From positions 1,716 to 32,385 of the forward strand of contig CAYXGU010000001.1 of assembly GCA_964464645.1 (NCBI GenBank): DNA of 30,670 bases, read 5' to 3'. Made by a program: the position numbers and the translations under genes. Shown here piece by piece: positions 13,676 to 29,827 of the stretch. Position 1 is the first letter of the stretch; each line of letters opens with the position of its first letter. The DNA is from an uncultured Candidatus Saccharibacteria bacterium. GTDB lineage: Bacteria > Patescibacteriota > WWE3 > UBA101185 > UBA10185. The notes beneath the pieces are model-generated. The model saw nothing but the letters and a program-made list of their open reading frames with translations. It did no database searches and was not told where the DNA came from.

Positions 13676-13773
13676 GCACTGATTTTAGCACCCTTTTGCC
13701 TATTCGCTATATATTGCGGTATCATATTAAAAGTTGTTATTTTTGATTATTTTTGGAAGGAGGAGATTGTAGA

Positions 13774-14037
13774 ATGTTTGACAATTTAAAAAAGATGTTA
13801 GGAATGGGCGGCAGTACAGACACAAATACAAGTAGTACAGGAGGCGTTATGCAAGATACAACCCCACAGGTAACTATGAATGAGGAGCCTGAAATGACCG
13901 GTACGGAAGAACCTGCTGACCAAAATATACAAGGTGTGCAAAGCGCACAAACTCAGACCGCGTCCGCTGAAACCAAAAAGTGTGAGTGCGGTAAGAACGG
14001 TTGCGTATGCAATGATGGCGAATGCGCCTGCGAATAG
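13774..14037 (+). CDS. Small acidic low-complexity protein with C-terminal (CxC)3 tail
   Basis: AGGAGG SD before ATG 13774; 87 aa ending KKCECGKNGCVCNDGECACE. Confidence 0.75.
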   Translation: MFDNLKKMLGMGGSTDTNTSSTGGVMQDTTPQVTMNEEPEMTGTEEPADQNIQGVQSAQTQTASAETKKCECGKNGCVCNDGECACE

Positions 14038-14104
14038 TTGGCGGCAGGCTGAGCGGTTGCATTTTTCCCAAAAAGGTAAATAATGTGGTGTGTTGGTAAG
14101 TACA

Positions 14105-14160
14105 TTGGGGATTGGTGTGACGCAAGAGTACTTGCTATCACCATCGTTGGGGATTGGTGT
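14105..14160 (+). repeat. 14-bp direct repeat of the tRNA-Gln 5' end enclosing a hairpin
   Basis: TTGGGGATTGGTGT at 14105-14118 and 14147-14160; GCAAG-AGTA-CTTGC hairpin between them. Confidence 0.85.
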
Positions 14161-14221
14161 AATGGCAGCACGCTGCACTCTGGATGCAGAAATCGGGGTT
14201 CGAATCCCTGATCCCCAGCCA
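14148..14221 (+). tRNA. tRNA-Gln (anticodon CTG)
   Basis: TGGGGAT/ATCCCCA acceptor (U1-A72), CTGCA-CT-CTG-GA-TGCAG anticodon arm, GGTTCGAATCC T-arm, encoded CCA. Confidence 0.97.
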
Positions 14222-14671
14222 TATAGCCTGGAGAAACCTTGTATGATATGGGTGATATACTTGTATAATGCTTATTAAAATTACACCAGAAATAATAAAT
14301 GCAGTTAAAACTATAGAGGGAATTTTAATTTCTAAGAATTATAAGAATCTTTCCTCCGAAAAAAGGACTAATAGATTAAGTAACGATGAGGTAGAAAAAG
14401 CGATTAAGAATTACGGAGGTTCTGTAACAGAAAGACCTGCACTCAGCTTATCTGATTTACAAGTTATTAAAATCGAAGGAAGTGATTTTGATACATATCA
14501 TGTAGACTACGATTTATATATTGACGGTAAACAAAGTGATCTCACATTATCGCTAATAGTTACCAACATTGACGGTAACTACGTAGCTTCAATAGAAGAT
14601 TTACACGTTTTATAAATCCTAGAGAATTAATTGGTTCCTGACCGACATGCTCAGCCATATAGCCTGGAGAA
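14216..14671 (+). repeat. 20-bp exact direct repeat spanning the tRNA CCA end, flanking one gene
   Basis: CAGCCATATAGCCTGGAGAA at 14216-14235 and 14652-14671. Confidence 0.95.
14268..14615 (+). CDS. Hypothetical protein (DUF7668-like), cassette 1 cargo
   Basis: 115 aa, AT-rich, SDLTLSL...IEDLHVL C-terminus. Own TGA-TATACT 6 nt before ATG. Confidence 0.7.
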   Translation: MLIKITPEIINAVKTIEGILISKNYKNLSSEKRTNRLSNDEVEKAIKNYGGSVTERPALSLSDLQVIKIEGSDFDTYHVDYDLYIDGKQSDLTLSLIVTNIDGNYVASIEDLHVL

Positions 14672-29295: not shown

Positions 29296-29673
29296 TCGGA
29301 TTTGACTGGATTTACCCAACACACGAAAACAAGTCAGATTGCTAAACTCTGTAACAATTAGCAAAATATAAGTGCAGCTAATAAAAATGCACGCGTTCCC
29401 GCCTACGCGGGTGCGCTAGTCTAACCCCTAAAAAGCAGCGACTGGTTGATTGGTTTTCTACCTCGAAGAACACCAATTGGCCTAATACAATTCGGGGTGA
29501 AATGTGCAGTGCCCGGCTAAAACCTGCACGTTAACAACAACTAATTTAGCCATGAACCGGCTTTTCGGGTGCGCCTATGCCCTACCGGTTTTTAACAAAG
29601 TTGGGCTAAGCTTGTAAGTTTTTTTGTGTCTTGGCTTTTCAGCACGCGGGTTCGATTCCCGCCATCTCCACCA
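29288..29673 (+). ncRNA. ssrA: tmRNA (tag ORF 29374-29424, AANKNARVPAYAGALV)
   Basis: GGGGATG...GGATTTGAC 5' end; GCGGGTTCGATTCCCGC-CATCTCC-ACCA 3' end with G3.U70; ATAAGT-GCA resume context. Confidence 0.95.
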
Positions 29674-29726: not shown

Positions 29727-29827
29727 CACGCGGGGAATCGAATGGCGCAGGCACGACGGTGCCGAGCCGGGGTCGACTGGCTCGCCAGCAGGCGAGAACA
29801 GGTGACCGATTCCCGCCATCTCCACCA
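29727..29827 (+). repeat. Duplicated tmRNA 3' end with a 72-nt GC-rich structured insert at the T-loop
   Basis: CACGCGGG (29727-34 = 29643-50) and CGATTCCCGCCATCTCCACCA (29807-27 = 29653-73) flank the insert. Confidence 0.9.

Follow-up and report, generated by a model that had tools for sequence, protein, structure and literature searches.

The gene for tRNA-Gln(CTG) in the genome analyzed here is preceded by a 42-nt unit, in which the first 13 nucleotides of the same tRNA are repeated, the D-loop is replaced by a small hairpin, and a short strand folds back on the copy. We favor, with a probability of roughly 0.55, the reading that this unit is an insertion scar, or a minimal member, of a tRNA-invading selfish DNA, with the gene restored and a stub of it carried in the leader. 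The window (the whole stretch of DNA that was analyzed, 30,670 nt, from an uncultured Candidatus Saccharibacteria bacterium) contains three stable-RNA genes, for tRNA-Glu, tRNA-Gln(CTG), and tmRNA (ARAGORN, Rfam).

Transfer RNA genes are classic landing sites of large mobile elements and partial copies of them are usually taken as att scars. The partial copies described here are tiny, 5′-sided, broken in loops, and always with a hairpin at the break. Turnover of such stubs is rapid, in genomes that are below 1 Mb and otherwise carry little DNA to spare. Should a dedicated mechanism be at work (the leading candidate being nuclease-driven homing), it would constitute a new way for selfish DNA to reside inside essential RNA genes. 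Besides, the stubs can mislead tRNA annotation and they add structured leaders that RNase P must handle.

Layout of the unit

The features of the locus are the following (coordinates of the window, strand, description).

14075..14084, +, promoter-like −10 element GGTAAATAAT, 21 nt before the stub (putative assignment)
14105..14118, +, dead 5′ stub: one leader T and tRNA-Gln positions 1–13, an exact 14-nt direct repeat of 14147–14160
14119..14137, +, hairpin plug in place of the D-loop: GAC, a 5-bp stem (14122–14126 with 14131–14135) closing a 4-nt loop, and TA
14138..14146, +, fold-back strand: TCAC, resembling the D-stem 3′ strand (GCAC in the gene), then the complement of stub positions 9 to 5
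14148..14221, +, intact tRNA-Gln(CTG) with encoded CCA (ARAGORN; Rfam RF00005, 63 bits)

The stub comprises the 5′ strand of the acceptor stem, positions 8 and 9, and the 5′ strand of the D-stem of tRNA-Gln. The two copies of the 14-nt repeat (14105–14118 and 14147–14160) are spaced by 42 nt. In dinucleotide-preserving shuffles of the window, the 14-nt word finds on average 0.13 matches with two mismatches allowed. The hairpin of the plug reads GCAAG/AGTA/CTTGC (14122–14135). The following TCACCATC (14138–14145) pairs back with positions 9–12 and 5–7 of the stub: in the RNAfold structure, 14139–14142 pair with 14114–14117 and 14143–14145 with 14110–14112, with one T bulged. Together, stub, plug, and fold-back strand form a D-arm with its loop replaced. 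The original prediction, made from the letters only, had described a copy of the 5′ quarter of the tRNA 42 nt upstream, a hairpin in place of the D-loop, and the look-alike TCAC; the exact repeat and the RNAfold pairs bear out all of these. The whole unit folds as a nested hairpin with a minimum free energy (MFE) of −13.1 kcal/mol and a weak z-score of −1.8 (RNAfold). The thermodynamic z-scores of the units in general are weak (−0.3 to −2.4), so that the case for the hairpins is one of recurrence and not of energy.

Between the two 14-nt copies there are 28 nt, non-coding and unique. A simple tandem duplication was rejected, since just 14 of the 42 nt recur and the other 28 are unique. A tRNA intron (group I or bulge–helix–bulge) was rejected as well: the 74-nt tRNA-Gln downstream is uninterrupted and no intron family of Rfam scored. 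With Rfam, at gathering and E-value thresholds, tRNA was the sole match in this region of the window and in three related loci. Neither integrase, nuclease, recombinase, nor cargo is present at the tRNA-Gln unit, with its 28 non-coding nt between the repeats. An inverted repeat of 14 nt (79% complementary) links 14090–14103, just before the stub, with 14128–14141 in the 3′ half of the plug; this pairing yields another hairpin for the leader, and the MFE structure of the 127-nt precursor adopts it.

Occurrence before tRNA-Gln in relatives

A BLAST search against 40 relatives matched the body of the tRNA only. Reading of the upstream flanks in a genome of another genus (G016) revealed 5′ copies before both of its tRNA-Gln genes. 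A pattern scan for the 5′ word of tRNA-Gln repeated 20–120 nt upstream was run on 134 genomes of the class; a 5′ copy precedes tRNA-Gln in nine of them, all of one family, and the control with the reversed pattern gave none. The genome of the window (G000) escaped that scan because position 7 of its tRNA-Gln differs; with it, there are 10 genomes from six genera, in one family. The units are 42–148 nt long (none above ~150 nt), often in tandem, and each has the same order of elements: a copy (positions 1–13, 1–15, or 1–18/20), an inner hairpin, and a strand that re-pairs with the 5′ strand of the D-stem. Arrays hold from one to more than three units; the outer tandem units are more diverged and carry extra insertions.

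The plug frame GAC-GC...GC-TA is common to the window and to two other genomes, G092 (L062) and G120 (L068), where the fold-back stem reaches 9 bp. The common frame and fold-back imply that the three units are homologous. Their loops are AGTA in the window and TTC and TTT in G092 and G120; the AGTA loop is not conserved, and the AGYA cap that the hairpin was said to share with an insert next to tmRNA cannot be upheld as a common trait. In all three genomes the stub is identical to the gene, although the tRNA differs at position 7 between them, and the fold-back stem of these units is kept despite a wobble-compatible change and an indel. Stub identity and a kept fold-back stem could instead reflect selection on RNA structure; the three known members of this plug type are too few for covariation to have statistical power.

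The boundaries were surveyed in 38 stub/gene pairs. Of the 38 stubs, 23 begin no more than 2 nt from tRNA position 1, and 32 end at positions 12–22, in the D-loop. This clustering at position 1 and in the D-loop counts against random breakpoints. It would be expected if the incoming DNA mimicked the conserved 5′ part of a tRNA and recombined by Campbell-type integration or homing repair. By this survey only, two tandem units of 82 nt were found upstream of tRNA-Asp in G119 (L102), each with positions 1–28 of tRNA-Asp.

A gene for an NYN-domain protein next to tRNA-Gln(CTG) is a neighborhood common across the family and shared by G000 and G092. Via the NYN protein, 80 metagenome loci were fetched, 56 of which have an adjacent tRNA-Gln(CTG): nine of these have a 5′ stub and 47 are without any. 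Genome G012 keeps the neighborhood, including a small Cys-rich open reading frame (ORF), yet has no unit; a decayed remnant is not claimed there, the alignment being too weak. In genus g56, the unit and the tRNA together were matched in 7–8 of 14 genomes and the tRNA alone in five of 14. The original prediction had named alleles without the unit as something to look for; at the level of orthologous loci, versions with no unit do exist, in the 47 of 56 metagenome contigs and in G012. The Cys-rich ORF lies between the NYN gene and tRNA-Gln (13753–14037 in the window; L004:1164–1409), at the same place in G012 with a very different sequence.

Plugs as modules

The tRNA-Gln unit of genus g56 has a plug (~40 nt) with further matches elsewhere, at 90%–98% identity. 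Every copy that was fetched lies in the D-loop of a 5′ stub upstream of tRNA-Asn, tRNA-Thr(CGT), or tRNA-Gly(CCC), so that this plug is found in the stubs of four tRNAs (Gln, Asn, Thr, and Gly). Aligned, 29 copies share a nested hairpin of 16 pairs, the outer stem of which differs on both sides between tRNA types; these two-sided changes mostly reflect the differing natural D-stems. Behind the plug, the tRNA-Gly stubs have a strand of the Asn/Thr type and not the natural one of the Gly D-stem, which implies that the module carries this strand along. Some stubs extend to about position 30, and the modules there are true insertions into the D-loop, flanked by a 3-nt duplication. The tRNA-Gln stubs across the family have, in their D-loop, plugs of at least five unrelated types.

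The plug type of the window is rare. In G000, its frame occurs near a tRNA once (single-copy). Searches with the exact stub-plus-plug pattern in ~185,000 species representatives place it in three genomes: the exact 18-mer gave 21 matches in genome contigs, of which only those in G092 and G120 are real, the other 19 being in unrelated phyla and at chance level. In metagenome contigs, the longer stub-plus-plug pattern had no match. In viral contigs, the stub-plus-plug pattern had three matches, all to one unrelated stretch with no tRNA beside it, and patterns for the g56-type and anticodon-arm-type plugs had none. The frame GAC-GC...GC-TA was rejected as a common junction module: in ~390 kb of related loci, the three homologous units and one tRNA-Thr stub are the only places where it comes after a tRNA fragment. 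The window plug does not belong to a REP/MITE-like class, with no dispersed near-identical copies in G000. The g56 plug does have many dispersed near-identical copies in other genomes, and in this, as in being small imperfect palindromes, the plugs resemble REP/BIME-type and miniature palindromic repeats. They differ from these in being confined to pseudo-tRNA arms beside tRNA genes, not spread over intergenic DNA in general.

Two further modules were observed. A second hairpin with a 7-bp stem (GCTATAG and its complement) adjoins the g56 plug in L160, L157, L163, and L175; L160 has three tandem copies, and 3-nt duplications flank the module inside stubs. In G016 (L033, L043, and L037), a perfect GC-rich palindrome of 20 nt lies inside pseudo-copies of tRNA-Lys, tRNA-Ile, and tRNA-Ala, with no target duplication and never in the working genes.

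Partial copies at other genes and associated GIY-YIG reading frames

The genome of the window (774 kb, 100 contigs), the relatives of which are labeled Patescibacteria, was searched as a whole with ARAGORN and the words of each tRNA were sought in its own flanks. An 11-mer of the gene itself recurs within 300 nt at 13 of 40 tRNA and tmRNA genes (random flanks: mean 0.34, maximum 3). Leaving out neighboring similar tRNAs, about seven of the 40 have true partial copies: Gln, tmRNA, Cys, Met, Ile, Leu(TAG), and Pro(GGG). In each, a GC-rich hairpin stands exactly at the break; the 3′ copies start in the T-loop, and the 5′ copies stop in the D-loop or the anticodon loop. The original prediction had held that a one-off duplication with no similar cases would speak against it; with about seven of 40 genes in this genome and 10 genomes at tRNA-Gln, the unit is not such a case. 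The parallel it had drawn with tmRNA is real too, the last 21 nt of tmRNA recurring at 29807–29827.

That tmRNA copy (of 29653–29673) lies 133 nt downstream, behind an insert of ~65 nt with three hairpins. Inserts of the same family, with compensatory changes in the stems, also stand before 3′ copies of tRNA-Pro(GGG) on contig C59 of G000, of two tRNAs of G016 (tRNA-Ile and tRNA-Leu), and of tRNA-Gln both in G011 and in genus g56. On contig C14 of G000 (L080), two units stand in tandem after tRNA-Met, both made of a small hairpin and the last 23 nt of the gene. In the same locus, tRNA-Ile(TAT) has a 5′ copy 94 nt upstream (positions 1–34, with the anticodon stem perfected and the loop altered) and a 3′ copy downstream.

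G000 has a single free-standing GIY-YIG ORF (82 aa; L079:1258–1506, minus strand, contig C12; Pfam, 40 bits), the stop codon of which falls in the first bases of tRNA-Cys, and a pseudo-tRNA-Cys is present just upstream of the ORF. On either side of ORF plus tRNA-Cys stands a pseudo-tRNA-Cys copy, the two having a hairpin substitution in common. The protein was searched in 86 genomes of the family and gave 16 strong hits (the Pfam scores for GIY-YIG being 40–52 bits). Eight of the 16 lie <50 nt upstream of a tRNA on the same strand, and all eight are preceded by a pseudo-copy of that tRNA; five more lie 47–274 nt downstream of a tRNA or tmRNA. In the pseudo-copies linked to GIY-YIG, a short GC hairpin, the stem of which is conserved, takes the place of the anticodon arm or of the stretch from the anticodon loop to the T-loop. 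At the tRNA-Gln locus itself, there is no ORF in 14119–14147 and so no GIY-YIG ORF, and most g56 genomes with near-identical plugs have no GIY-YIG match. The statistical association is suggestive and makes the free-standing GIY-YIG protein, a nuclease as predicted from its sequence, the only candidate enzyme with such a link.

Promoter position and folding of the leader

A generic scan for sigma-70 promoters and terminators around the unit returned nothing useful and did not call GGTAAATAAT. A −10-like motif (GGTAAAAT, at most one mismatch) is found 9–39 nt before tRNA-Gln in 32 of the 47 orthologous loci without stub. In the nine loci with stubs, it is found 10–52 nt before the outermost stub in all nine and between stub and gene in none. 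This placement puts the outermost stub at the normal position of the gene start and suggests that the units lie inside the transcription unit. The stubs are thus probably transcribed within the tRNA-Gln unit, as judged from the position of the motif.

A gene for RNase P RNA is present in the genome of the window. Folding was done with ViennaRNA, with the acceptor stem constrained to use the true 5′ strand in one case and the stub in the other. For the window, the fold with the stub in the acceptor stem is 0.5–1.0 kcal/mol above the cloverleaf (15%–27% of the ensemble). For seven other units, it is 3.2–9.5 kcal/mol below the cloverleaf, because the insert is antisense to the true D-arm. In such models, a competition of the stub for the acceptor stem is possible on paper. 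During transcription, stub and antisense strand should pair first, which would protect the gene.

Proposed origin and its alternatives

In the scenario that we prefer, DNA would have entered the D-loop-coding part of tRNA-Gln together with a replacement copy of the first 13 nt of the gene. The original start of the gene, behind its original promoter, would stay upstream as a dead stub (if this is the direction of the event), its D-loop turned into a small hairpin plug and its end locked in the fold-back stem, while the working gene would continue downstream. Stub and plug would now probably be just part of a 5′ leader of ~60 nt removed by RNase P. An insertion scar in the D-loop with restoration of the gene had been one of the two origins initially put forward, and it agrees with the presence/absence pattern, the promoter-like motif upstream of the outermost stub, the decaying tandem units, and the plug shared between tRNAs. 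The unit may then belong to a family-wide group of pseudo-tRNA repeats, capped by hairpins and with the behavior of selfish, mobile, or homing DNA: a class that would break the loop-coding DNA of tRNAs (D, anticodon, or T), make the gene whole again, appear and disappear among related genomes, form tandem arrays, and have plugs in common across different tRNAs. Mobility of the window unit itself is suggested by analogy with the longer units, 42 nt being too short for an autonomous or circular element. A wider view is more tentative and, to us, somewhat doubtful: the stub would be the smallest footprint of an undescribed selfish DNA made of tiny hairpin modules, with or without a domain-only GIY-YIG gene, that enter the loop-coding DNA of tRNAs and tmRNA. 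The modules would persist because the gene part lost at an insertion is in each case brought along or regenerated. With time, arrays of hairpin-capped pseudo-tRNAs would arise around tRNA genes in the tiny-genome bacteria of the candidate phyla radiation (CPR).

The insert reads in part as an antisense copy of the D-arm, which a template switch during replication would also produce, and a local accident of this kind, with no mobile element, is the least improbable of the alternatives, unlikely as we judge it. The fork or polymerase would stall at the inverted repeat of the D-arm, switch to the opposite strand, copy a short antisense stretch, and switch back upstream of the gene, with vertical inheritance afterwards. 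The layout suits this path, from the sense stretch (1–13) through the plug or loop and the antisense stretch (D-arm toward acceptor) to the spacer and the sense gene; the insert does end in the reverse complement of stub positions 5–12, and 42 nt require no enzyme of their own. Antisense matches extend past the end of the stub in G120 (positions 1–9 plus 15–23, p < 0.002) and are found in G016 at positions 10–21 (p about 0.01 and <0.002), but in the window itself the match is not significant (p = 0.41). A single ancestral event could account for G000 and G092, given their common NYN/tRNA-Gln neighborhood. On the other hand, tRNA position 1 is the boundary of the copy much more often than random switch points would allow, the identical g56 plug in the stubs of four tRNAs does not derive from the host tRNA, and versions that bear GIY-YIG exist.

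The other origin initially put forward, a leader in competition for the acceptor stem that would modulate processing by RNase P, was allowed by the folding energies and not supported by conservation. Stub and antisense strand would constitute a switch in the pre-tRNA that tunes RNase P processing or the output of tRNA-Gln. The modeled stub fold is close to the cloverleaf in the window and below it in the seven other units, the promoter motif upstream of the stubs makes transcription probable, and the stems are kept through a G·U-compatible change (G120) and through the changes on both sides of the outer stem. Against a switch, those outer-stem changes mostly mirror the natural D-stems, no Rfam family matches, the copy number varies from 1 to >3 with older units decayed, and the same site has plugs of at least five unrelated types, with plugs shared between tRNAs of different identity. 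The unit is also missing at 47 of the 56 orthologous loci and in genomes of one genus with others that have it, and such a patchy distribution argues against a selected switch, which we regard as quite improbable. Least probable is a classical att scar, that is, a tyrosine-integrase island or prophage integrated in tRNA-Gln and later almost wholly deleted. A direct repeat of part of a tRNA around foreign DNA is the hallmark of such integration (PMC9897764), and the 3′ side of tRNA-Gln has a separate 20-nt repeat flanking a small ORF. However, with 28 nt between the repeats, no integrase or cargo is left; the 5′ part of the gene is repeated rather than the 3′ part, and the break is in the D-loop. 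To our knowledge, the D-loop is not among the described integration sublocations in tRNA genes, which are reportedly the anticodon loop, the T-loop, and the 3′ end. Moreover, random deletion of kb-sized islands would not yield tiny units at many independent loci with a hairpin exactly at the break. The insertion scar of a tRNA-invading selfish DNA is thus retained as the preferred reading.

Relation to known systems

The nearest published relatives are the tRNA-linked repeats (TLRs) of E. coli and the tRNA fragments at att sites. The TLRs (Egan and Landy 1978; Rudd 1999) are copies of the last 18–19 bp, downstream of the gene (PMC8144298). Like the present units, they are short gene-less repeats with an exact copy of one end of the neighboring stable-RNA gene, single or in tandem and mostly of no known function. 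The TLRs lie in tRNA and rRNA operons, and the position of the −10-like motif suggests a similar placement of the unit. Unlike the TLRs, the unit has the first 13 nt of the gene (13–14 nt of the 5′ end), upstream, with a break in the D-loop and a cap made of plug and fold-back stem. Partial tRNA genes left behind when kb-sized elements integrate are a familiar finding (PMC9897764). As at attL and attR, a part of the gene stands as a direct repeat on both sides of foreign DNA, and the gene itself is made whole again (here, an exact 14-nt repeat, 28 nt between, and an intact tRNA). Those elements are, in contrast, kb-sized, have an integrase, and normally repeat the 3′ part, whereas the unit has 28 nt with no integrase, cargo, or remnants of them between the repeats, no recombinase, and a copy of positions 1–13 broken in the D-loop. 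Neither hairpins nor mini-units are mentioned in PMC9897764; 5′ stubs broken in the D-loop with hairpin caps are in neither PMC8144298 nor PMC9897764, and we found no published description in the searchable literature.

For the GIY-YIG loci, the closest likeness is the homing endonuclease SegB in the tRNA cluster of phage T4, also encoded by a small free-standing GIY-YIG nuclease gene among tRNA genes, which spreads itself and flanking DNA by cutting the DNA of tRNA genes (PMC2330249; PMC13096335). In the family studied here, the ORF of 80–100 aa sits between pseudo-tRNA and tRNA; these cellular ORFs are domain-only and cleavage is only predicted. SegB, unlike the loci of the family, is not reported to leave hairpin-capped stubs.

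On the 3′ side of tRNA-Gln in the window, an exact 20-nt direct repeat (14216–14235 and 14652–14671) consists of the last 6 nt of the tRNA and 14 nt of trailer. It flanks an AT-rich ORF of 115 aa (14268–14615) with a match to DUF7668 (64 bits), and an identical word of 23 nt is present in G002. The ORF with its repeats has the look of a small cassette that entered at the tRNA-Gln 3′ end.
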